Shown here in pieces: positions 7,292-62,500 of a DNA stretch of 64,000 nucleotides (its first letter is position 1; each line of letters opens with the position of its first letter). Origin of the DNA: Vicinamibacterales bacterium (GTDB lineage: Bacteria; Acidobacteriota; Vicinamibacteria; Vicinamibacterales; UBA8438). Under the pieces are notes generated by a model, which ran no database searches, was not told where the DNA came from, and was given only the letters and a program-made list of their open reading frames with translations. The DNA lies in the NCBI GenBank assembly GCA_036012905.1, contig DASCQF010000126.1:13165-77164 (forward strand). The letters are read 5' to 3'. A program made the position numbers and the translations under genes.

Positions 7292-7355
7292 ATCCTTGTT
7301 AACCGCTGATGGTACAAGCTGTTAGCGTCTCATTCAAGGATCGATGCACCCTCCG

Positions 7356-7398
7356 CCCTTCATCTGACTGCTGAATCCTGACTTCTGACTTCTCGAGC
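7356..7398 (+). repeat. Heptamer-periodic intergenic array (CTGACTG CTGAATC CTGACTT CTGACTT CTCGAGC)
   Basis: Read directly from the sequence, in the spacer between the uppS start and the truA stop. Confidence 0.75.
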
Positions 7399-7405
7399 AA
7401 CCGGC

Positions 7406-10696: not shown

Positions 10697-10710
10697 AACG
10701 AGTGCGCCCC

Positions 10711-10747
10711 AGGAGTCAGAAGGCAGAAGGCAGGAGGAAGAGGGTGG
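10711..10747 (-). repeat. Heptamer-periodic intergenic array (CTGMCTY units, read on the minus strand)
   Basis: The plus strand reads AGGAGTCAGAAGGCAGAAGGCAGGAGGAAGAGGGTGG. It lies between the tolC-family stop and the GT2 start. Confidence 0.75.
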
Positions 10748-11509: not shown

Positions 11510-11545
11510 CCCGCGCGGGTCAATCATCGTTCTGAAGCGGAAGCC

Positions 11546-11603
11546 GGCGAAGCCATCCAGCTTCCTTCTGCCTTCTGACTTCTGACTTCTGCCTTCTACG
11601 CTC
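11546..11603 (+). repeat. Hairpin-head plus heptamer array element (GGCGAAGCC..GCTTC then CTGCCTT CTGACTT CTGACTT CTGCCTT CTACGCT)
   Basis: Read directly from the sequence, between the GT2 stop and the GT4 start. Confidence 0.8.
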
Positions 11604-18476: not shown

Positions 18477-19171
18477 ATCAGCTCCTCGTGGCACTCGATG
18501 TCGACACCAGTGAGCGGGCGATCGAGCTGGCCGACCTGCTGCGCGGCACCGCGGGTGGTTTCAAGATCGGAAGCCGGCTCTTTACGAGCGAAGGGCCGTC
18601 GATCGTCTCGGCGCTCGCAGACCGCGGCGACCGGGTGTTCCTGGACCTCAAGTATCACGACATTCCGACAGTCGTGGCAGAGGCGGTGCGGGCGGCGGCC
18701 CGTCTCGGGACCTGGATGCTCACTGTCCATTCCGCCGGTGGACCAACCATGCTGGAGGCCGCGGCCGACGCGGCGCGTCAGGCCAGCCGGCCGCCGCTCG
18801 TGGTCGGAGTAACGGTGTTGACCAGTCTCGGCGACGCGGAGCTCGCGCGCATCGGCGTGAGCCGCGCGCTGGCCGACCAGGTGGAAGCACTGGCCGACCT
18901 GGCAACCGGCGCCGGTCTCGATGGTATCGTGGCCTCACCTCGCGAGGTCGGGCGGCTGCGCGCCCGCCTGGGCTCGGGGCCGATACTCGTGACGCCCGGC
19001 ATCCGTAACGGCGCTGGTACCGGCCAGAGCGGCAGCGACGACCAGGTGCGGACGCTCAGCGCGGCTGAAGCCCTCTCGGCCGGCTCCAGCTATCTCGTGG
19101 TCGGACGCCCCATCATCGCGTCCCCGGACCCTCTGACGGCGGCCCGGGCGATCGCCGAGCAGCTCAAATGA
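18473..19171 (+). CDS. pyrF: orotidine 5'-phosphate decarboxylase
   Basis: [22 protein letters not shown], and YLVVGRPI motifs. The GTG at 18473 overlaps the pyrD stop (GTGA). The longer ORF from 18239 is out-of-context Arg/His junk overlapping pyrD. Confidence 0.88.
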
Positions 19172-19176
19172 AGGCT

Positions 19177-19234
19177 GGCGTAGGCCTCCGGCTTCCTTCT
19201 GCCTCCTGCCTCCTGACTTCTGCCTTCTAACTCC
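19177..19234 (+). repeat. Hairpin-head plus heptamer array element (GGCGTAGGCCTCCGGCTTCC then CTGCCTC CTGCCTC CTGACTT CTGCCTT CTAACTC)
   Basis: Read directly from the sequence, between the pyrF stop and the glutaredoxin-like gene start. Confidence 0.8.
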
Positions 19235-19245
19235 TTGAGCGCCAC

Positions 19246-19552: not shown

Positions 19553-20125
19553 CTACTTGGCCGTGACGACGAAGTGCCCGCGCCGGTTGCGCGACCAGCA
19601 CCCTTCGTGCGAATCGGTACAGAAGGGCGACTCCTCGCCCCGGCTCACCGTCGCGATACGGTTCGTGGGAATCCCGAGACTCACCAGGTAGTCCCTGACC
19701 GCAGCCGCGCGACGCTCGCCGAGCGCGAGATTGTACTCGTTGGTGCCACGCTCGTCGCAGTGGCCCTGCACCGTCACCCGGGTGGCACCCCACTGGCGCA
19801 TCCAGTCGGCGTTGCGCTGCAGCGCAGCCCGCCCGTCGGGCAGCAGCTCAGATTGATCGAGCTCAAAGAATACCGGGTCGAGCGGCGATGTGCTGTTCAG
19901 CTCCTCCAGCGACATCCGCGCGAATAACTCCTCGGGCGTCAACGGCGCTGGTGGCGGCGGCTCCGGTGGCGGTGGCGGCGGTGGTGGTGGCGGTGGCGGT
20001 GGTGGCGGTTCCGCCGGCGGCGGCGGCGGCGGCTCAGGCGGTGGGTTGTCAGCGCACCCCACCGCACCGAAACCGAGCACCAAGCTCAGGCATACGGCGA
20101 GCAGATAGCGATAAGCGGACTTCAT
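19553..20125 (-). CDS. pal: peptidoglycan-associated lipoprotein (OmpA/Pal family) with a poly-proline linker
   Basis: Lipoprotein signal MKSAYRYLLAVCLSLVLGFGAVGC. A ~40-residue Pro-rich linker follows. The OmpA-like domain reads TVQGHCDERGTNEYNLALGERRAAAVRDYLVSLG. Confidence 0.88.
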   Translation of the reverse strand: MKSAYRYLLAVCLSLVLGFGAVGCADNPPPEPPPPPPAEPPPPPPPPPPPPPPPEPPPPAPLTPEELFARMSLEELNSTSPLDPVFFELDQSELLPDGRAALQRNADWMRQWGATRVTVQGHCDERGTNEYNLALGERRAAAVRDYLVSLGIPTNRIATVSRGEESPFCTDSHEGCWSRNRRGHFVVTAK

Positions 20126-28832: not shown

Positions 28833-28849
28833 CGTGCTCCCAACGATCT

Positions 28850-28906
28850 GGCGAAGCCCACCTGCCACCTTCTGACTTCTGCCTTCTGACTCCTGACTTC
28901 TCGAGC
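28850..28906 (+). repeat. Head plus heptamer array element (GGCGAAGCC.. then CTGACTT CTGCCTT CTGACTC CTGACTT CTCGAGC)
   Basis: Read directly from the sequence, in the queE-queC intercistronic spacer. Confidence 0.8.
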
Positions 28907-28914
28907 ATCCTCCG

Positions 28915-29556
28915 CTATACGCCGCGAGTCTCCGCGCCCCACAGATACTTGTGTAGCTGGATCTGCACACGCACCGGCAGATGGTCGCCAAGCACCCACT
29001 CGCCCAGCCGCGCTGGCGGCAGCGCGTCGTGAACCGGCGAGAACAGCACCGCCCCGCACCGCGTCGCGAGCGTGTGCCGCCGCACCACGTCTCGTGCGAA
29101 CTCGTAGTCGACGCGATCGGCAATGATGAACTTGACCTGGTCGCGGTTTGTCAGCCTCTCGAGGTTGCCCCAGACGTTCCGGCCAGACTCTGCGCTCCCG
29201 GGACACTTGATGTCCATGACCTTGATGACCGACGTGGGCACGCGGCCCACGTCCAGCTGCCCGCCGGTCTCCAGCAGCACGGTGGCGCCGTCGGCCACCA
29301 GCCGGTCCATCAAGGGATAGACGTCCTCCTGCAACAGCGGTTCGCCCCCGGTGATCTCGACCAGGTCGCACCGGTACTGCCCAACCTCGGCGATGACGTC
29401 CGCCACCTCGAGCGCGCGTCCATCGCGAAAGGCATACGGGGTGTCACACCAGACACAGCGCAGGTCGCAACCAGTCAGCCGTACGAAGACGCACGGCCGC
29501 CCGCTCTGGTCGGATTCGCCCTGAATCGAGTAGAAGATTTCGTTGACGGTCAGCAT
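28915..29556 (-). CDS. queE: 7-carboxy-7-deazaguanine synthase (radical SAM)
   Basis: [39 protein letters not shown] (QueE Cx14CxxC-type cluster motif). Confidence 0.9.
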
Positions 29557-30337: not shown

Positions 30338-30370
30338 TACTGGATTCTTGCGAGCTGCGAACCAGATGTT

Positions 30371-30430
30371 GGCGAAGCCCTCCAGCTTCTCCTGACTCCT
30401 GCCTCCTGACTTCTGACTCCTATCGAGCGC
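30371..30430 (+). repeat. Hairpin-head plus heptamer array element (GGCGAAGCCCTCCAGCTTCTC then CTGACTC CTGCCTC CTGACTT CTGACTC CTATCGAGCGC)
   Basis: Read directly from the sequence, between the 2-hydroxyacid dehydrogenase stop and the nth start. Confidence 0.8.
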
Positions 30431-30433
30431 TCT

Positions 30434-31405
30434 TCAGAGGGCCACCGGCGTCACCGCCGGCCGCCCACTCACGACCTCCACCACGTTGCGCACGGCGAGC
30501 TCGGCCATCGCCGTACGGGTTTCACGGGTGGCGCTCCCCAGGTGCGGCGTCAGACAGACGTTCTCCCGGCCAACCAGCTGAGGGTGCACACCCGGCTCCC
30601 CCTCGTACACATCGAGACCGGCGCCGGCAATCAGACGCGCATCAAGGGCCCAGGCAAGGGCGCCGTCGTCCACCACTCCCCCACGCGACGTGTTGATCAA
30701 GAACGCCGATCGCTTCATGCGCGCCAACGTCCGCCGGTTGATCAGGTGTCGGGTGTCCTGGGTCAACGGCACGTGCAACGACACGACGTCAGATGTCAGC
30801 AGAAGTTCGTCGAGCGATACCACCGCATGGTCGGTCGCGGCATTCTCGGCGCCAGCACCGGTCCGCGCAGCGAAGACCGCACGCATCCCGAACGCCGGCG
30901 CAACGGCGGCCACGGCGCGACCGATCCGTCCGGCGCCGACGACCCCGAGCTGCTTGCCCCGTAGCTCGGCGCCCAGGAGGAAATCGAAGGCCCAACCCTT
31001 CCAGGCGCCGTTCCGGACCACCCGCTCGCCCTCACCGATGCGGCGCGTCACCGCCAGAATCAACGCCCACGTGAATTCCGCCGTTGCGCCCGTCAGGATG
31101 TCGGGCGTGTTCGTCACCACGATCCCCCGCGACGCGGCGGCCGCGACATCGATGTTGTCGAATCCGACCGCGACGGTCGCGACCACCTTCAGCTGGTCTC
31201 CGGCGGCGATCGCCGACTCTTCGATCCGATCGTTGAACATGCAGATGAGGCCCTGCTTCCCACCCACACGCGCGCATAGCGCGTCGTGCGACAGCGCGTC
31301 AGAGTGGTCGTGCAGGTCGATGTCGCAGACGACTTCGAGCTGGGCGAGCACGGCAGACGGCATCCGCCGTGTGACGAGCACGGACGGCTTAGTGGCCCCG
31401 GTCAT
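30434..31405 (-). CDS. D-isomer-specific 2-hydroxyacid dehydrogenase (glyoxylate/hydroxypyruvate reductase-like)
   Basis: NAD-binding GVVGAGRIGRAVA, catalytic-region NTSRGGVVD, and HLGSAT. The start is ambiguous. ATG 31405 lies inside the inverted-repeat element, and an in-frame GTG at 31381 is the alternative. Confidence 0.85.
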   Translation of the reverse strand: MTGATKPSVLVTRRMPSAVLAQLEVVCDIDLHDHSDALSHDALCARVGGKQGLICMFNDRIEESAIAAGDQLKVVATVAVGFDNIDVAAAASRGIVVTNTPDILTGATAEFTWALILAVTRRIGEGERVVRNGAWKGWAFDFLLGAELRGKQLGVVGAGRIGRAVAAVAPAFGMRAVFAARTGAGAENAATDHAVVSLDELLLTSDVVSLHVPLTQDTRHLINRRTLARMKRSAFLINTSRGGVVDDGALAWALDARLIAGAGLDVYEGEPGVHPQLVGRENVCLTPHLGSATRETRTAMAELAVRNVVEVVSGRPAVTPVAL

Positions 31406-31583
31406 AAATACGGTCGCATTCGGCCGCCGATGCATCCCACCAGGCGCGGCGCTGGGCTTCGGCTCAGCGGGGTCGACTGCTGCCGGTCTGCTCCCTCCTC
31501 GCGCCTACCGCGAGCTGTGTGCGGCATCCGTCGAGTCGGCCCTCGATGCGTGACCGTATTTTTGACCGGGACCACTCGGACGG
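31388..31583. mobile_element. ~195-bp element with 25-bp terminal inverted repeats, copy A (MITE-like or structured RNA)
   Basis: Left arm AGTGGCCCCGGTCATAAATACGGTC (31391-31415) matches the reverse complement of the right arm (31552-31576) at 23/25 positions. About 80-85% identical by eye to 62305-62500. It is flanked by the direct repeat CGGACGG (31381-31387 and 31577-31583). Confidence 0.7.
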
Positions 31584-35480: not shown

Positions 35481-35514
35481 GATCCCTCCATCACGGTCAG
35501 ACATTAGAAGTGGT

Positions 35515-35571
35515 GGCGAAGCCCACAGGCTTTCTCCTGTCTCCTGCCTCCTGTCTCCCGACTTCTAGAGC
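35515..35571 (+). repeat. Hairpin-head plus heptamer array element (GGCGAAGCCCACAGGCTTTCTC then CTGTCTC CTGCCTC CTGTCTC CCGACTT CTAGAGC)
   Basis: Read directly from the sequence, between the glmM stop and the pdxJ start. Confidence 0.8.
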
Positions 35572-35578
35572 ATTCGTC

Positions 35579-36928
35579 CTACCCGAGCTCTGCCCGCACG
35601 CGTTGCTCAATCGTCTCGGCGAGACCCTCGATCGCTGCCTGATCAGGTCCTTCTACCATGATCCGCACAAGCGGCTCTGTTCCCGAGTAGCGGACGAGTA
35701 CTCGACCCTCCCCCTCGAGATCGCGCTCGGCCCTCTCGATGAGCTGTGACACCTCCGGGAGCTCCGCCAGCGCAGTCCGCCGTCGCACCCGCACGTTCAC
35801 CAGCACCTGGGGCAACGGCACCAGGTCAGCAGCCAGGTCGGCCAGATCCCGTCCGGTCTCGATGACCGCCCGCGCAACTATCAAGGCGGTGGCCAGCCCG
35901 TCTCCGGTCGCCAGGTGGTCGGCGAAGATGATGTGCCCAGACTGCTCGCCACCGAGCGCGAGGCCGCGCCGGGTCATCTCTGCCCACACCAGCCGGTCCC
36001 CCACCGAACACCGGTGGACGGTAATGCCATCGGCGCGCAGGGCGTGCTCGAGCCCGATATTGCTCATCACAGTCGCCACCACCGCGCGTTGAGGCAGCCG
36101 CCCCTCCGCTGCCAGCCAGCGGGCCCCGATCAGCAACACCGCATCGCCATTGACCACCGCGCCGCGATGGTCAACAAATACCACCCGGTCGCCATCACCG
36201 TCGAAGGCGGCTCCCAGCCGGCATCCCCGCTCGACCACCGCCCGCGCCAACCGCTCGGGGTGTGTGGAGCCGCAGTCGAGATTGATGTTCCGACCATCCG
36301 GCGCATCGTGCAGCACGATCGGATCCATCCCCAGCCGACGCAACACGGCCGGCGCGATCTGGCTGGTGGCACCGTGTGCGCAGTCGACGGCGATGCCCAG
36401 GTCCGCTGGTGCCTGCACGCCGTCAAACAGCCGACTGGTGTGCACGATGTAGGGCTCGCCGCACGCGACGGTCTTGGGCGACGGAACCGGCGAATCCGGC
36501 ACCACCCAGGTCTGGTCGGCGACCAGCGCCGCGATCCGCGTCTCGAGGCCATCGTCCGCCTTCTCGCCGCTTCCGGTAATGACCTTGACCCCGTTATCCT
36601 GAAATGGATTGTGCGAGGCAGAGACGACGATGCCGGCATCGAACCCGCCGTCACGGGTGAGAAAGGCGATTGCCGGTGTCGACAGGAGGCCGCCATTTGT
36701 GATGCTCGCCGCCTCGGTCGCCAATCCGCGCGCCAACTGGCCGGTGATCCACTCACCCGACTCGCGCGTGTCGCGACCGATGAGCACGCGCAGGGAGCCA
36801 TCCGGACGTCTGCAGGTCCTGGCGATCGACGCACCAAGCCGTGCAAGGGTGCGCTTGTCGAGTGGAAACTCGCCGGGCGTGCCCCGAACGCCATCAGTCC
36901 CGAACAATCTGGCGGAGGAGAGGTTCAC
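35579..36928 (-). CDS. glmM: phosphoglucosamine mutase
   Basis: Active-site GIVVSASHNPFQDNGVK, FDGDGDR metal loop, and GGEQSGH sugar-binding loop. Confidence 0.95.
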   Translation of the reverse strand: MNLSSARLFGTDGVRGTPGEFPLDKRTLARLGASIARTCRRPDGSLRVLIGRDTRESGEWITGQLARGLATEAASITNGGLLSTPAIAFLTRDGGFDAGIVVSASHNPFQDNGVKVITGSGEKADDGLETRIAALVADQTWVVPDSPVPSPKTVACGEPYIVHTSRLFDGVQAPADLGIAVDCAHGATSQIAPAVLRRLGMDPIVLHDAPDGRNINLDCGSTHPERLARAVVERGCRLGAAFDGDGDRVVFVDHRGAVVNGDAVLLIGARWLAAEGRLPQRAVVATVMSNIGLEHALRADGITVHRCSVGDRLVWAEMTRRGLALGGEQSGHIIFADHLATGDGLATALIVARAVIETGRDLADLAADLVPLPQVLVNVRVRRRTALAELPEVSQLIERAERDLEGEGRVLVRYSGTEPLVRIMVEGPDQAAIEGLAETIEQRVRAELG

Positions 36929-39559: not shown

Positions 39560-39626
39560 CTAGAGACCACCCCAATGGAGGCAGGAGTCAGGAGGCAGGA
39601 GACGGGAGAAGCCGGGGGGCTTCGCC
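39560..39626 (-). repeat. Hairpin-head plus heptamer array element (minus strand: GGCGAAGCCCCCCGGCTTCTC then CCGTCTC CTGCCTC CTGACTC CTGCCTC)
   Basis: Read directly from the sequence, between the ftsH stop and the folP start. Confidence 0.8.
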
Positions 39627-39654
39627 GTCCTCTGGTCCGGCCTGGATGGGACCA

Positions 39655-42977: not shown

Positions 42978-42991
42978 GGGTCTACGTTCTT

Positions 42992-43081
42992 GGGATTTGG
43001 GGTTCGGGATTCGAGGTGGTTGGCGCCCCGCTCCGTCTCGGGCGCCATCAATTCCAGCCCGGATCCCGATTCCCGTATCCC
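42992..43081. repeat. Composite element: GGGATTY heptamer array, 7-bp GC hairpin, inverted GGGATTY array
   Basis: 42992-43019 reads GGGATTT GGGGTTC GGGATTC GAGGTGG. The hairpin GGCGCCC-N11-GGGCGCC is at 43022-43046. The reverse complement of 43058-43081 reads GGGATAC GGGAATC GGGATCC GGG. The element lies between the tRNA and the tilS start. Confidence 0.75.
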
Positions 43082-43173
43082 AGTGTCAGGCAGGCTGTGC
43101 GCGCTTCAGCAGCCTGCGTCGGATGGCGGCCCGGCCTGCGCGCGGGCCGGTTCGACCCCGGTGGCGAGCGAGA

Positions 43174-43387: not shown

Positions 43388-44434
43388 CTAGAGAATAAGC
43401 ATCGCGTCGCCATAGCTGTAAAAGCGGTAGTCTCGGTGGACCGCTTCGGCGTAGGCCGCCAGCAGAGGCTCCCGTCCGGCGAAGGCGCAGGCGAGCATCA
43501 GCAACGACGACCGTGGCAGATGAAAGTTGGTGAACAGGGCCCCAATGACCCTGAATGTCACGCCGGGAAACAGATACAGGTCGGTGACCCCGACGCCGGC
43601 AGACAGACGACCGCCCCCCTTCCGAACCGCCGTTTCGAGCGTGCGGCACGTAGTGGTGCCAACCGCCACGATCCGTCGTCCCGAATCGAGCGCTCGGTTG
43701 ACCGCGGCGGCGGTGGCCGCCGGCACATCGTATGCCTCCGGCTCGACACGGTGCTCCTCGACCCGCTCCACGCGGATCGGCTGAAACGTGCCATACCCAA
43801 CGTGCAGAGTCACCCGTTCGACCTCGATCCCCCGCTTCCGGAGACGCCTCAGCAGGGCGTGGGTCAGATGGAGTCCGGCTGTCGGCGCCGCCACGGAGCC
43901 GCGGACCGTCGCATACACGGTCTGGTACCGCTCGCCGTCGATCGTGTCGTCCGGTCGCTTGATGTAGGGTGGCAGTGGCACGTGTCCGAGCCTGTCGATT
44001 GCCGATTCGACCGAGGTCCCGTCCTCTACCCAGAGCCGGACAGTGCGCCGCCCGTGAAACCGGCGCTCGAGCACCTCGCCGCGCAGCCGGAGGCCGTCGG
44101 TTTCGAACACGACAGCGGCGCCAACCCGCAGCTTCTGCCCAGGATGCATCAGGGCGTCCCACCGCTCGTCGTCGATTCGAGCAAGCAGCAGACACTCGAC
44201 CGCCCCGCCACTCGGCACACGATGGCCGAGCAGCCGCGCCGGAAACACCCGTGTGTCATTCACGACGACTAGATCGCTCGGCGACAGCAATTCGGGCAGA
44301 TCGGTGACCGTCCGGTGCGACAGCACGCCACTGCCGCGGTCGAGGACCAGCAACCGCGCCGCCTCCCGGTCGGACGTCGGCGATTGCGCAATCCGATCCG
44401 CCGGCAGCTCGAAATCGAAGTCGGAGACGAGCAT
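43388..44434 (-). CDS. queA: S-adenosylmethionine:tRNA ribosyltransferase-isomerase
   Basis: MLVSDFDFELPADRIAQSP N-terminus, VPLPPYI, and AAPTAGLH motifs. The upstream part of the 396-aa ORF covers repeat DNA and is rejected. Confidence 0.92.
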   Translation of the reverse strand: MLVSDFDFELPADRIAQSPTSDREAARLLVLDRGSGVLSHRTVTDLPELLSPSDLVVVNDTRVFPARLLGHRVPSGGAVECLLLARIDDERWDALMHPGQKLRVGAAVVFETDGLRLRGEVLERRFHGRRTVRLWVEDGTSVESAIDRLGHVPLPPYIKRPDDTIDGERYQTVYATVRGSVAAPTAGLHLTHALLRRLRKRGIEVERVTLHVGYGTFQPIRVERVEEHRVEPEAYDVPAATAAAVNRALDSGRRIVAVGTTTCRTLETAVRKGGGRLSAGVGVTDLYLFPGVTFRVIGALFTNFHLPRSSLLMLACAFAGREPLLAAYAEAVHRDYRFYSYGDAMLIL

Positions 44435-44472
44435 GGGAACGAAACGCGGATCCAGGCTCTCCGCATCACTCA

Positions 44473-44500
44473 GGCTACGGGCTACAGGCTTCAGGCGCTC
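44473..44500 (+). repeat. GGCTACR heptamer array (GGCTACG GGCTACA GGCTTCA GGCGCTC)
   Basis: Read directly from the sequence, in the queA 5' leader. It is the inverted partner of 44594-44642. Confidence 0.75.
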
Positions 44501-44593
44501 TTGGGGTGCGCTCGACACGGCACAACTGCGCCGGATGTAGCCGACCCCACACCGGTCGCCCGGCCAGGCGGCGCGCACGCAGCCGACTGGCCA

Positions 44594-44642
44594 GAGCGCC
44601 TGTAGCCCGTAGCCTGCAGCCTATTGCCCGTAGCCTGCAACC
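44594..44642 (-). repeat. GGCTACR heptamer array, 7 units, inverted orientation
   Basis: The plus strand reads GAGCGCC TGTAGCC CGTAGCC TGCAGCC TATTGCC CGTAGCC TGCAACC. It lies between the fabH stop and the queA leader. Confidence 0.75.
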
Positions 44643-51290: not shown

Positions 51291-51839
51291 TCACTCTTCC
51301 GGTGCGTCGAAATTCTCCCACATGTACTCGGGCTGATAAGCGTGGAGATACAGGAAAACCTCGTGCACGAGGTTCACGACCCGGTTGACGCCATACTCGT
51401 GGTGATTCCGTGTCGCCACCAGTTCGAGCGACATGGCGCCCCGGGACAGGACGCACCGCACCCGGGCGCGACGGCGGTCGACCCGCCGGTGCGCCGGCAG
51501 CTTCGGTGAGGCGCGACCGGCGACGAACGCCTGCAGGTCGCGATGCAGTGGCGAGCGCGCCCGCACATTCGGCAGCAGATTCCGGAACACGAAGGCCCCG
51601 GTCCCGGGCGTGTAGCCCAGGGCCAGCGGCTTGGTCCCGAGCCATGAGAATCGGAACCGGTGTCGACTGGCGGTCGACGCCTGCTCGCTGAATCCACGAA
51701 ATACGCCGCGGTCGGCGTAGCCCTGGAGCCGTTCCCGAACCACGGCCAACGACTGGGTCGCCGTCAGCCGAGGTCGGGACGCCGGCCTTGACTTGCTGCT
51801 TTGTCCTGCCTTCTGCCTTCTGACTTCTGACTTTTTCAA
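51291..51839 (-). CDS. hypothetical protein (start uncertain)
   Basis: Long ORF with ordinary composition in its C-terminal ~150 aa. The first ~20 codons (MKKSEVRRQKAGQ...) are a translation of a heptamer array. The real start is therefore probably a downstream GTG/TTG near 51,74x-51,76x. No family recognised. Confidence 0.5.
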   Translation of the reverse strand: MKKSEVRRQKAGQSSKSRPASRPRLTATQSLAVVRERLQGYADRGVFRGFSEQASTASRHRFRFSWLGTKPLALGYTPGTGAFVFRNLLPNVRARSPLHRDLQAFVAGRASPKLPAHRRVDRRRARVRCVLSRGAMSLELVATRNHHEYGVNRVVNLVHEVFLYLHAYQPEYMWENFDAPEE

Positions 51840-51845
51840 GCGCTC
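51782..51845 (+). repeat. Heptamer array element (CTGCCTT CTGCCTT CTGACTT CTGACTT ..AAGCGCTC)
   Basis: Read directly from the sequence, just downstream of the ThDP-enzyme stop. Confidence 0.8.
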
Positions 51846-51846
51846 G

Positions 51847-54690: not shown

Positions 54691-54730
54691 CTCTCCGTTT
54701 CTCTGCCTTCTGACTTCTGACTTCTAGAGC
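54691..54730 (+). repeat. Heptamer array element (CTGCCTT CTGACTT CTGACTT CTAGAGC)
   Basis: Read directly from the sequence, between the GGT stop and the FGE-family start. Confidence 0.8.
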
Positions 54731-54738
54731 TAAGGACC

Positions 54739-56624: not shown

Positions 56625-56670
56625 GGCGAACGAAATCAGAAGTCAGAAATCAGAATTTGATGTAGCGCTC
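56625..56670. repeat. Heptamer array element, AT-richer variant (GGCGAAC GAAATCA GAAGTCA GAAATCA GAATTTG ..GTAGCGCTC)
   Basis: Read directly from the sequence, between the 542-aa ORF stop and the GGT start. The array is inverted relative to the head and tail, compared with the other copies. Confidence 0.7.
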
Positions 56671-58357: not shown

Positions 58358-58369
58358 TGTCAGGACACC

Positions 58370-58410
58370 GGCGAAGCCGACCGGCTTCTCCTGCCTCCTG
58401 CCTCCTAAGA
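58370..58410 (+). repeat. Hairpin-head plus heptamer array element (GGCGAAGCCGACCGGCTTCTC then CTGCCTC CTGCCTC CTAAGAA)
   Basis: Read directly from the sequence, between the RidA stop and the 542-aa ORF start. Confidence 0.8.
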
Positions 58411-58412
58411 AC

Positions 58413-59965: not shown

Positions 59966-60004
59966 AAGGAGACAGGGGGCGGGAGAAAGTCGGAGGGCTT
60001 CGCC
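59966..60004 (-). repeat. Degenerate head plus heptamer element (minus strand: GGCGAAGCCCTCCGACTTTCTC CCGCCCC CTGTCTC C)
   Basis: Read directly from the sequence, in the divergent qor / glcF spacer. Confidence 0.6.
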
Positions 60005-60062
60005 AGCATTCGCTCTGCAACAGGGTGACAAGGCGGGTCGATTTTCGGCAGACTGTCACGGC

Positions 60063-62304: not shown

Positions 62305-62500
62305 CTTAGTGGCCCCGGTCATGAATACGGTCGCATTCGGCCGCCGATGCATCCCACCCAGGCCGGCGTTGGGCTCTTGCTCAGCGGGGTCGAATACTGC
62401 CGGTATGCTCCCTCCTCGCGCCTACAGCGAGCCGAGCGCGGTATCCGCCGACTGGGCCCTCGTTGCGTGACCGTACTTATGACCGGGACCACTGAGAACG
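62305..62500. mobile_element. ~195-bp element with 25-bp terminal inverted repeats, copy B
   Basis: Left arm AGTGGCCCCGGTCATGAATACGGTC (62308-62332) matches the reverse complement of the right arm (62469-62493) at 22/25 positions. About 80-85% identical by eye to 31388-31583. It begins 8-15 nt downstream of the glcE stop. Confidence 0.7.

Follow-up and report, generated by a model that had tools for sequence, protein, structure and literature searches.

The spacer between queE and queC in a 64,000-nucleotide stretch of Vicinamibacterales DNA (contig DASCQF010000126.1 of assembly GCA_036012905.1, positions 13,165 to 77,164; hereafter the window) holds, at 28850-28906, a short conserved head followed by four tandem seven-base units. 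What is this sequence, how did it come to lie beside a stop codon, and do the twelve similar sites listed with it in an earlier note on the same DNA belong to one family? The analyses described here answer that the site is one copy of a non-coding element of about 60 bases, in which a small hairpin precedes two to four repeats of 7 bases, and that this element represents a real and abundant family within one sub-clade of the Vicinamibacterales, belonging to the known class of intergenic heptanucleotide repeats. The element is dispersed, polar and, judged from its gene context, transcribed, and it adjoins the stop codons of its neighbors.

The window, from an acidobacterium of soil, has a G+C content of 66%, is 100% identical to a contig of assembly GCA_024711645.1, and encodes a folP whose best relatives in reference genomes are Vicinamibacterales at 60-64% identity. 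Intergenic heptanucleotide repeats form the commonest long microsatellite, or simple sequence repeat (SSR), class in bacteria (Mrazek, 2007, as cited in PMC4679880). Acidobacteria are among the most abundant soil phyla, and the Vicinamibacterales family provides a well-defined case of such repeats from that phylum; its density of about 13 copies per 64 kb extrapolates to several hundred to a thousand copies per genome.

Occurrence and Structure of the Element

Each of the thirteen listed coordinates holds sequence as the earlier note described it. Specifically, arrays of at least two units matching C[TC]G[ACT]C[TC][CT] number 12 in the window, compared with a mean of 0.86 and a maximum of 4 in 100 dinucleotide-preserving shuffles; seven window arrays contain exactly four units, and period 7 is by far the commonest that Tandem Repeats Finder reports among window arrays with at least three copies. 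The head proposed in the earlier note, a 9-mer forming a hairpin with GGCTTC, is real but degenerate, since the exact pattern GGCGAAGCC-N3-8-GGCTTC occurs just twice (against zero expected), yet the 9-mer GGCGAAGCC itself occurs eight times and in seven of these lies directly 5' of an array and in the same orientation. The proposed terminal CT(C/A)GAGC was likewise borne out in part: CTAGAGC is present twice in the 64 kb, both times at an array end, but the tail is weakly conserved in copies outside the window. An nhmmer profile built from metagenome copies alone and run against the window recovered all the listed sites but one, 12 of 13 in total, at E values between 1e-17 and 7e-5, with no further match in the 64 kb; the missed site, at 56625-56670, is atypical and a doubtful member of the family. 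The flagged site itself reads GGCGAAGCC-CACC-TGCCAC-CTT, (CTGACTT CTGCCTT CTGACTC CTGACTT), CTCGAGC.

Coding DNA makes up most of the window, and all 13 copies are nonetheless intergenic; the pattern being no more frequent between genes than within them, which the earlier note had named as refuting the family, is not what the window shows. Gene models agree with that note in placing 12 copies between co-directional genes, the remaining one (59966-60013) lying between divergent genes, and in assigning the purine-rich strand to the transcript at nine copies and the pyrimidine-rich strand at four. Window spacers hold one element each, with occasional inverted pairs elsewhere (for example in L432), and the neighboring genes have ordinary housekeeping roles (uppS, truA, an outer-membrane efflux protein gene, glycosyltransferase genes, pyrF, queE/queC, nth, pdxJ, glmM, folP, ftsH, gamma-glutamyltranspeptidase and others).

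A metagenome scan with the pattern GGCGAAGCC-N10-20-(CTGMCTY)2 found the composite of head and array in at least 114 stretches, yielding about 100 non-redundant copies, mostly on contigs of 64-69% G+C; the metagenome figures in this section and the next refer to those copies among the matches listed. From start to end, the pyrimidine-rich strand consists of (a)CAGAAGCC, the small hairpin GGCGAAGCC-CTCC-GGCTTC, the array (CTGNCTY)2-4, and a tail of about 15 nt (CT-NGAGC...). Conservation per position is 59-80% in the loop CTCC and 54-62% in the hairpin arm GGCTTC, the array starts 21 or 22 nt past the head start in 75 of 100 copies, and the tail retains its CT at 90-94% followed by a weakly conserved NGAGC (about 45-50%). 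Among more than 300 units, five of the seven positions hardly vary, the counts by sequence being CTGCCTC (105), CTGACTC (71), CTGACTT (57), CTGTCTC (48) and CTGCCTT (37), and about 69% of units are of the GAG type, placing AGGAG(G) every 7 nt on the purine strand. Under a strict definition of the unit, arrays comprise two (29), three (29), four (33), five (3), six (3) or more (2) units, and unit number is therefore sharply capped at about four.

As read from the unit, the purine strand (RAGNCAG)n is free of ATG, GTG and TTG, has no frame with a stop codon and carries roughly one C in every 7 nt, while the pyrimidine strand contains three to four C and one G per 7 nt, its CTGACTY units placing TGA in all three frames. 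The unit and the hairpin arm are alike at five of six positions (GAAGNC against GAAGCC; chance probability roughly 0.07), a resemblance suggesting that the heptamers may be reiterations of the arm. Three further descriptions were considered and rejected. A strict 7-nt register through head and tail fails because the array offset is either 21 or 22 nt, so that the register is only approximate; likeness between the tail and an inverted copy of the head is too weak; and a small open reading frame (ORF) beginning at an ATG in the tail is contradicted by the presence of that ATG in only about one third of copies and by a frame that changes in unit number break. Arrays lacking the exact head in the same metagenome contigs have decayed heads, and these variants mostly break the stem rather than compensate by covarying changes (a small sample, judged by eye).

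With respect to RNA structure, Rfam gave no match to the element at the gathering threshold or at E<=1, a tRNA-Met being the sole match in the window, and folding of six elements against shuffles gave z-scores of +0.6 to -1.6, none of them significant. In the predicted fold of the ftsH-folP copy, in which the pyrimidine strand is sense, the last unit pairs with GGGGUGG ahead of the folP start codon. A search for intrinsic terminators in the window from 26 to 45.9 kb found eight terminator-like sites, none at an element, against 7.7 expected from shuffles, which suggests that termination in the host occurs mainly by means other than canonical intrinsic terminators.

Position and Polarity Relative to Genes

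When the metagenome copies were scored against their neighboring genes, a consistent polarity emerged. Of 49 co-directional spacers, 38 have the purine strand in the transcript and the other 11 the pyrimidine strand (p=1.4e-4). Similarly, of the 77 elements with two called neighbors, 57 turn their tail to a stop codon and 20 to a start codon (p=3e-5), the gap on the tail side is smaller than that on the head side in 57 (p=3e-5), and the distance from array end to the stop codon faced has a median of 15 nt, with 44 of 57 lying within 20 nt. On the head side distances are larger (median to a stop codon 80 nt, to a start codon 50 nt), and head-to-start distances range from 9 to about 400 nt. Of 15 convergent spacers, where stop codons lie on both sides, 12 again have the smaller gap at the tail. 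Roughly one copy in four has the other orientation or points toward a start codon. Together these gaps and orientations define a canonical order of gene, stop codon, about 15 nt, (RAGNCAG)2-4 and hairpin. The earlier note had described the copies as lying within a few nucleotides of a stop or start codon; they do lie near such codons, but the governing rule is that the tail adjoins a stop codon, not that either codon is near. A purine strand beginning about 15 nt past a stop would form part of the 3' untranslated region (UTR) or intercistronic RNA of the upstream gene, ending in the hairpin.

Replication was considered as a source of this orientation bias, with local GC skew standing in for the replication strand. 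Relative to skew, elements in convergent and divergent spacers fall into a 6:7 split, which argues weakly against a replication-based bias, the skew itself being confounded by gene strand.

Inheritance and Turnover in Related Genomes

Syntenic loci were reached via PdxJ homologs, and relatives were ranked by PdxJ identity. The near-identical strain L206 differs from the window by 18 single-nucleotide polymorphisms and one indel in 20.7 kb, and that sole indel is exactly 14 nt, or two units, within the glmM-pdxJ array; the slippage between strains for which the earlier note had proposed to look is thus found as a two-unit difference. In L202/L203 (90% PdxJ identity) all four regional elements are present, namely those of the ftsH-folP, glmM-pdxJ, 2-hydroxyacid dehydrogenase-nth and queE-queC spacers. 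Orthologous arrays of L202 and the window keep about four units and differ almost solely at the R and N positions, as at queE-queC, where (AAGGCAG)4 in L202 corresponds to AAGTCAG GAGTCAG AAGGCAG AAGTCAG in the window. At 85% PdxJ identity, L204 has two or three recognizable elements: the queE-queC element is kept with a 45-nt insertion, a remnant persists at ftsH-folP, and the glmM-pdxJ spacer holds a different heptamer, NCAGGCT. These comparisons show that the composite element is inherited vertically while its arrays turn over by whole-unit slippage.

An apparent loss of the queE-queC and glmM-pdxJ elements in L202 was rejected, as gene calls had hidden both. Because the purine strand is open in all frames, arrays corrupt gene calls in public annotations, giving rise to false N-terminal extensions and, after stop loss, real C-terminal ones. 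The spurious ORF extensions reported in the earlier note are real. The public queC call at L202 16843-16912 starts from an ATG in the element tail and gains 23 residues. At L202 9884-9925 the glmM stop has been lost (TAG to GAG), and the gene now runs on for 14 codons into the array, ending at a TAG within one of its units. A further observation from L202 concerns its queA-tRNA-Met spacer (2003-2160), where an additional purine-strand array immediately follows the queA stop, alongside (AAAGCCC)6 and (GTCTCCA)3; the window counterpart is a decayed trace, AAGGCCC AGAGGCC CGAAGCT, representing array birth or decay in place.

In L440 and L441 (78-79% PdxJ identity, same gene order), no period-7 array and no head 9-mer was found in 20 kb, and the spacers matching the four elements of the window are 4 to 117 nt long; this array-free related clade provides a natural control. 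The orthologous spacers of relatives do not hold conserved regulatory sites of unrelated sequence, the other circumstance that the earlier note had raised against a repeat family. The four sites are filled in the 90% relative and empty only in the 78-79% relatives, a distribution that fits either gain or loss. A copy-and-paste process is required, because local slippage cannot yield identical non-repeat flanks, and we infer that the element multiplied into formerly compact spacers within one Vicinamibacterales sub-clade.

More distant Vicinamibacterales have many period-7 arrays of unrelated units (AATGCTG, AGGAATT, CCATCAG, CTTCCTA, GAAGTAG, TGCCCCA, TAGGGAC) in the same kind of spacer. Many of these arrays begin within the upstream stop codon or right at it, and inverted pairs are frequent; in L125, for example, (AGGAATN)6 overlaps the stop of the ftsH ortholog (75% identity) in the orthologous ftsH-folP spacer. 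Other units occur in the L123-L128 range and in L144; no arrays are present in L440, L441 or L127; and outgroup phyla have almost no period-7 arrays.

Distribution Beyond the Lineage

Without its head, the array is far less restricted: bare (CTGMCTY)3 occurs in at least 120 viral-contig stretches, on contigs of 31-70% GC. Permuted control heptamers occur in 84 and 30 stretches of the same kind, and five-unit arrays number 18 for the real heptamer versus 7 for a control. The idea of a special, universal heptamer unit across phyla was dropped because this enrichment over controls is only about 2- to 5-fold. In the cross-taxon viral-contig set, among the matches listed, the 3' side of the pyrimidine strand faces a stop in 42 cases and a start in 25, at a median of 13 nt, and arrays of three to four units dominate. 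The lineage-specific intercistronic family that the earlier note inferred, with the STRR repeats and REP/BIME as its analogies, therefore holds for the composite of head and array, whose period-7 arrays, bias to non-coding DNA, whole-unit variation and patchy occurrence place it with the LSSR/STRR type of repeat. Bare (CTGACTY)n is not lineage-specific, being found in many unrelated contigs and in Geobacter.

A different arrangement of the head 9-mer is seen in low-GC, unrelated metagenome contigs (L337, L354, L368, L376, L404 and others), where GGCGAAGCC is the apex of a longer GAA-loop hairpin such as CGGGC-GAA-GCCCG; a T-rich stretch follows the hairpin and then (CTGACTT)n, so that the array lies just past a terminator-like hairpin.

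Relation to Known Repeat Families

The closest parallels in habit are the heptamers GGGAATC and GGGGAYT of Xanthomonas and Nostoc, which are intergenic, prefer four units, and keep their gene neighbors from one related species to another although their length varies; the study found no function for them (Rehm et al., 2015; PMC4692102). Both groups share a 7-nt period, an intergenic location, about four units and unrelated housekeeping neighbors. In Xanthomonas and Nostoc, too, the G- or purine-rich strand is on the coding strand, 0-50 nt from a stop codon, the flanking ORFs are mostly co-directional and rarely divergent, and neighborhoods are conserved while length and sequence vary. The Vicinamibacterales element differs in its AAG-type units without G-tracts, in its conserved hairpin head and in its phylum. 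Since such units have no G-tracts, a G-quadruplex cannot explain the four-unit preference here, and the sharing of these habits by an element without G-quadruplex ability argues against that explanation.

In Geobacter metallireducens, 15 or 16 "class 3" sites of five tandem MTYCTGA each have been described, as has a second multicopy family whose 49 members each contain GGACCGG four times (Aklujkar et al., 2009; PMC2700814). MTYCTGA is the CTGACTY heptamer in another register, and both Geobacter families resemble the present one in being multicopy and mostly intergenic, for example between proB and proA; their flanks are conserved, as the copies were matched by BLAST. Class 3 sites differ in forming inverted pairs, in being read as DNA binding sites of the IHF/HU type, in being few, and in having no reported stop-codon polarity. 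A third system comprises TAACTGA repeats in 169 sets of two to six, located just upstream of start codons, for which S1, Csp or CsrA were proposed as readers (MacGregor, 2015; PMC4679880). As in marine Beggiatoaceae, some Cyanobacteria and Bacteroidetes, where TAACTGA is found, the present repeats are intergenic heptamer direct repeats of patchy phylogeny, number hundreds per genome (for the present family by extrapolation), precede unrelated genes and are suspected of a post-transcriptional role. TAACTGA sets, however, are forward-oriented before the start codon and replace the ribosome-binding site, whereas the present element abuts the upstream stop; they are also A/T-rich, have no hairpin head and carry stop codons on the sense strand.

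The repetitive extragenic palindromic sequences and bacterial interspersed mosaic elements (REP/BIME) of enterobacteria and pseudomonads share with the present element a copy number in the hundreds (as judged here by window density), an extragenic and mostly post-stop position in operons, transcription, construction on a small hairpin, and the lack of terminal inverted repeats and target-site duplications. In place of the GTAG motif and alternating palindrome mosaics of REP/BIME, the present element has a body formed by a tandem heptamer array, and no RAYT gene was found beside the copies examined. Finally, unit-number change of the transcribed (ATCTTTC)n in the hmw 5' UTR of Haemophilus influenzae requires transcription, RNA structure and RNase III (PMC12721329, a 2025 study). 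That repeat, too, is a heptamer SSR that is transcribed and gains or loses units by slippage, but it occupies a single phase-variable adhesin locus, exceeds 10 units and pairs with a G-rich arm to form an RNase III hairpin, whereas the present repeats occupy many loci with about four units, housekeeping neighbors and mostly no complementary arm. A literature search found no paper on such repeats in Vicinamibacteria, and the family is, as far as that search reached, previously undescribed. To the class it adds a conserved hairpin head, a clear stop-codon polarity, and a four-unit rule without G-quadruplex potential.

Origin and Function

The account that we favor, and regard as probable though far from assured, is that of a REP/BIME-like extragenic family with a heptanucleotide SSR body, which spread in one sub-clade, thereafter changed by slippage, and owes its polarity to selection on the transcript. 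The element would have multiplied by a copy-and-paste route in one Vicinamibacterales sub-clade, landing in spacers that are short and array-free in other relatives; it has since been inherited vertically, with units gained, lost and replaced whole by replication slippage. Polarity would result mainly from what each strand does as RNA. The purine strand is presumably harmless after a stop codon because it contains little C, offers neither start nor stop codons and cannot pair with itself, whereas the pyrimidine strand, being C-rich, G-poor and anti-Shine-Dalgarno-like, would as sense RNA favor Rho loading and pairing with ribosome-binding sites. Any positive function would be secondary: the array might act as a spacer keeping a 3'-protective hairpin clear of the terminating ribosome, and so protect the upstream message, or alternatively as a barrier to antisense transcription. 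The roles suggested in the earlier note (mRNA processing or stability, Rho loading on the C-rich orientation, decoy SD/anti-SD sites) agree with the statistics of orientation and position, which stop short of proof for any of them.

Several observations weigh against this account. No terminal inverted repeat or target-site duplication was found, and no transposase was found between an inverted element pair in L323, among the unknown ORFs of the window, or beside the copies examined. No filled-versus-empty polymorphism was seen among close relatives. The spacing to the stop codon is very tight and is not fully explained by a selective filter, and local GC skew does not cleanly separate replication from transcription as the cause of orientation. 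The invariance of five of seven positions, the CTCC/GGAG loop and the stop at four units are accounted for by sequence-specific recognition no less well than by a neutral or selfish origin. In addition, the metagenome sample was chosen by exact GGCGAAGCC, so that head conservation is overstated, and metagenome genes were called by third-position G+C, by which stops are reliable and starts crude.

How the element spread is the point on which two alternatives diverge from the favored account. In favor of purely local microsatellites, each arising by independent slippage in its own spacer with unit and flanks alike by convergence or composition, stand the clear in-place dynamics of the arrays, the many-unit heptamer arrays of relatives, the frequency of control heptamers in viral contigs (84 and 30, against at least 120), and the report that long SSRs are most often heptamers (Mrazek, 2007, as cited in PMC4679880). 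Independent slippage, however, cannot make identical non-repeat flanks, and more than 100 loci share one 9-mer head, loop and arm, always in the same order and at a set distance from the array (offset 21-22 nt in 75 of 100); moreover, the four spacers that are array-free in L440/L441 all bear the same composite in the window, and the head is not a pre-existing site in the array-free relatives. The shared head largely refutes purely local origin, which we consider highly improbable. A classical miniature inverted-repeat transposable element (MITE), or a REP mobilized by a RAYT or IS200-type HUH transposase that reads the hairpin and inserts near stop codons, would account for the high copy number, the decayed copies, the insertions inside heads and the arrival in compact spacers. 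Elements mobilized by HUH enzymes (IS200/IS605, REP/RAYT) depend on a hairpin and have neither terminal inverted repeats nor target-site duplications, and the lack of both agrees with such mobilization: in the flanks of 99 copies, shared direct or inverted words were no longer than in a mismatched-pair control, and hence no target-site duplication or copy-specific terminal inverted repeat is present. Against this, the head (GGCGAAGCC-N4-GGCTTC, stem 6-8 bp) has no GTAG of the REP type, clusters of palindromic units in alternating orientation are absent, window spacers holding single elements, and neither a transposase beside the copies examined nor filled-versus-empty polymorphism among close relatives was seen; the distance to the stop codon also varies by several nucleotides instead of being fixed. 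Transposition of this kind is thus very unlikely.

Two further alternatives assign the arrays a function. As polar Rho-loading cassettes, the C-rich, unstructured strand after the hairpin would constitute a Rho utilization (rut) site on antisense or convergent read-through RNAs, which would be terminated at the gene border, while copies in the minority orientation would attenuate transcription between cistrons. The base content of the strand (three to four C and one G per 7 nt), the TGA that CTGACTY presents in three frames and that would uncouple translation, and the position of the tail against the stop of the protected gene even in convergent spacers all suit this proposal, as does the lack of enrichment of canonical intrinsic terminators, from which Rho-dependent termination is likely to be important. 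A full rut site spans about 60-80 nt, though, and a tract of 28-45 nt is short for one; most copies lie inside co-directional operons, where antisense transcription is no obvious problem, and some of the other heptamer families found in those positions lack a C-rich antisense strand. We accordingly hold Rho loading to be improbable, with much the same standing as transposition. RNA binding arrays, in which (CAGGAG-N)n and the GGAG loop are bound by the 30S subunit through its anti-Shine-Dalgarno sequence in a standby or STAB-SD-like hold after termination, or by a protein with a footprint of about 7 nt (cold-shock domain, CsrA), would together form a post-transcriptional network. Consistent with such binding are the AGGAG(G) every 7 nt in the roughly 69% of units that are GAG-type, the near-invariance of five of seven positions, the GGAG loop on the purine strand, the sense-strand bias, a fixed post-stop spacing close to where mRNA leaves the terminating ribosome, the cap at four units, and, as read from sequence, the lack of a start codon, which would permit ribosome binding without initiation; MacGregor (2015; PMC4679880) reasons similarly for TAACTGA. 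About a quarter of copies, however, have the other orientation or point toward start codons, the flanking genes are unrelated housekeeping genes, near-identical strains differ in unit number, and head-to-start distance ranges from 9 to about 400 nt. Furthermore, relatives place unrelated heptamers that are not Shine-Dalgarno-like (AATGCTG, AGGAATT, GCAGGCT, TAGGGAC) in the same spacers, also from stop codons, and syntenic relatives manage without any array. Binding arrays are, on this evidence, unlikely.

A broader form of the same proposal, which we judge decidedly unlikely, is that post-stop, purine-sense heptamer arrays of about four units are a functional RNA module common to several phyla and not tolerated junk, the Shine-Dalgarno-like ladder and GGAG-loop hairpin capturing a 30S subunit or a protein of 7-nt footprint at termination. 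If true, the captured subunit or protein would decide whether the downstream RNA undergoes re-initiation or is shielded from decay or from Rho; other transcripts, through the complementary copies they carry, could pair in trans with purine arrays; and the four-unit rule in a heptamer that forms no G-quadruplex would point to a common reader of 28 nt. A phase-variable contingency locus was also considered and rejected as unlikely, because the neighbors are not surface or virulence genes but housekeeping genes (truA, pyrF, queC, nth, pdxJ, folP and others), and the arrays follow stop codons.

The Thirteen Copies

The listed copies are collected in Table 1.

Table 1. Position, structure and setting of the thirteen listed copies in the window.
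Copy	Position	Strand	Structure	nhmmer E	Context	Relatives
1	7349..7402	+	no head; 4 units (2 imperfect), tail CTCGAGC	4.9e-7	truA stop (7406) / uppS start, genes on - strand; purine strand sense; tail end 7 nt from stop	
2	10707..10747	-	degenerate head; 3 units	1.2e-6	outer-membrane efflux protein stop (10696) / GT2 glycosyltransferase start (10760), + strand; purine sense; array ~16 nt past stop	
3	11536..11603	+	full length: GGCGAAGCC-ATCC-AGCTTC, 4 units, CTACGCTC	1.4e-17	GT2 stop (11509) / GT4/GT1-family glycosyltransferase start (11617); C/U-rich sense; tail 13 nt from start codon	
4	19167..19242	+	head variant GGCGTAGGCC-TCC-GGCTTC, 4 units, tail ...TTGAGCGC	5e-14	pyrF stop (19171) / glutaredoxin-like start (19246); C/U-rich strand sense	
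5 (flagged site)	28847..28914	+	head with degraded 3' arm, 4 units, tail CTCGAGCATCCTCCG	4.2e-15	tail reaches queE stop (28915-28917, - strand); queC start 28832; purine sense	orthologs in L202, with array (AAGGCAG)4, and L204
6	30361..30433	+	full length, 4 units, tail ...CGAGCGCTCT	1.8e-17	tail abuts 2-hydroxyacid dehydrogenase stop (30434-30436, - strand); nth downstream; purine sense	orthologous in L202
7	35508..35578	+	full length, 4 units, tail CTAGAGCATTCGTC	8.8e-17	tail abuts glmM stop (35579-35581, - strand); pdxJ (235-aa form) start 35480	2 units fewer in near-identical strain L206
8	39560..39635	-	exact head GGCGAAGCC-CCCC-GGCTTC, 4 units	2e-15	ftsH stop (39655) / folP start (39550), both - strand; C/U-rich sense	L202 with 31-nt insertion in head; L204 with 2-unit remnant
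9	51782..51846	+	no head; 4 units, tail ...CAAGCGCTC	8.2e-7	tail 1 nt from TPP-enzyme gene stop (51847, - strand); next gene start 51743; purine sense	
10	54691..54738	+	no head; 3 units, tail CTAGAGC	6.8e-5	gamma-glutamyltranspeptidase stop (54739) / FGE-sulfatase start (54681), both - strand; purine sense	
11	56625..56670	.	atypical, doubtful member; + strand units AAATCAG/AAGTCAG/AAATCAG, A/T-richer; flanks GGCGAA and GCGCTC, unit polarity inverted relative to flanks	not recovered by profile	upstream of gamma-glutamyltranspeptidase start (56604)	
12	58362..58412	+	exact head GGCGAAGCC-GACC-GGCTTC, 2 units	1.1e-9	RidA-like gene stop (58413) / 536-aa gene start (58339), both - strand; purine sense	
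13	59966..60013	-	head, 2 degenerate units	5.4e-9	divergent spacer, zinc-dependent alcohol dehydrogenase (- strand, start 59869) / CCG/4Fe-4S gene (+ strand, start 60063)	

Other Repeats in the Window

The window contains additional repeats of other kinds. A second dispersed repeat of about 100 nt, AGGCGCGAGGAGGGAGCATACCGGCAGTATTCGACC ... GGGATGCATCGGCGGCCGAATGCGAC, is found at 31416-31506 (-) and 62378-62423 (-), with six to seven copies in 20 kb of L204; it has no Rfam match and shows no covarying pairs in nine copies. The copy at 31.4 kb lies directly upstream of the 2-hydroxyacid dehydrogenase ATG, a position conserved in L202/L203.

Two inverted heptamer pairs are also present. At 42990-43090, GGGATAC GGGAATC GGGATCC ... 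CGAATCC CGAACCC CAAATCC flanks a G+C-rich hairpin between tRNA-Met and tilS, the unit being of the same type as the GGGAATC of Xanthomonas. A third family, at 44471-44639, forms the inverted pair (NCAGGCT)6 ... (GTAGCCT)4, with arrays about 100 nt apart between the fabH stop and the queA start; its first array begins 17 nt past the fabH stop and yields the spurious ORF extension 43388-44578. Lastly, a (GGC)n tract of 27 triplets with 21-nt periodicity at 19950-20033 is presumably a coding, glycine-rich repeat.

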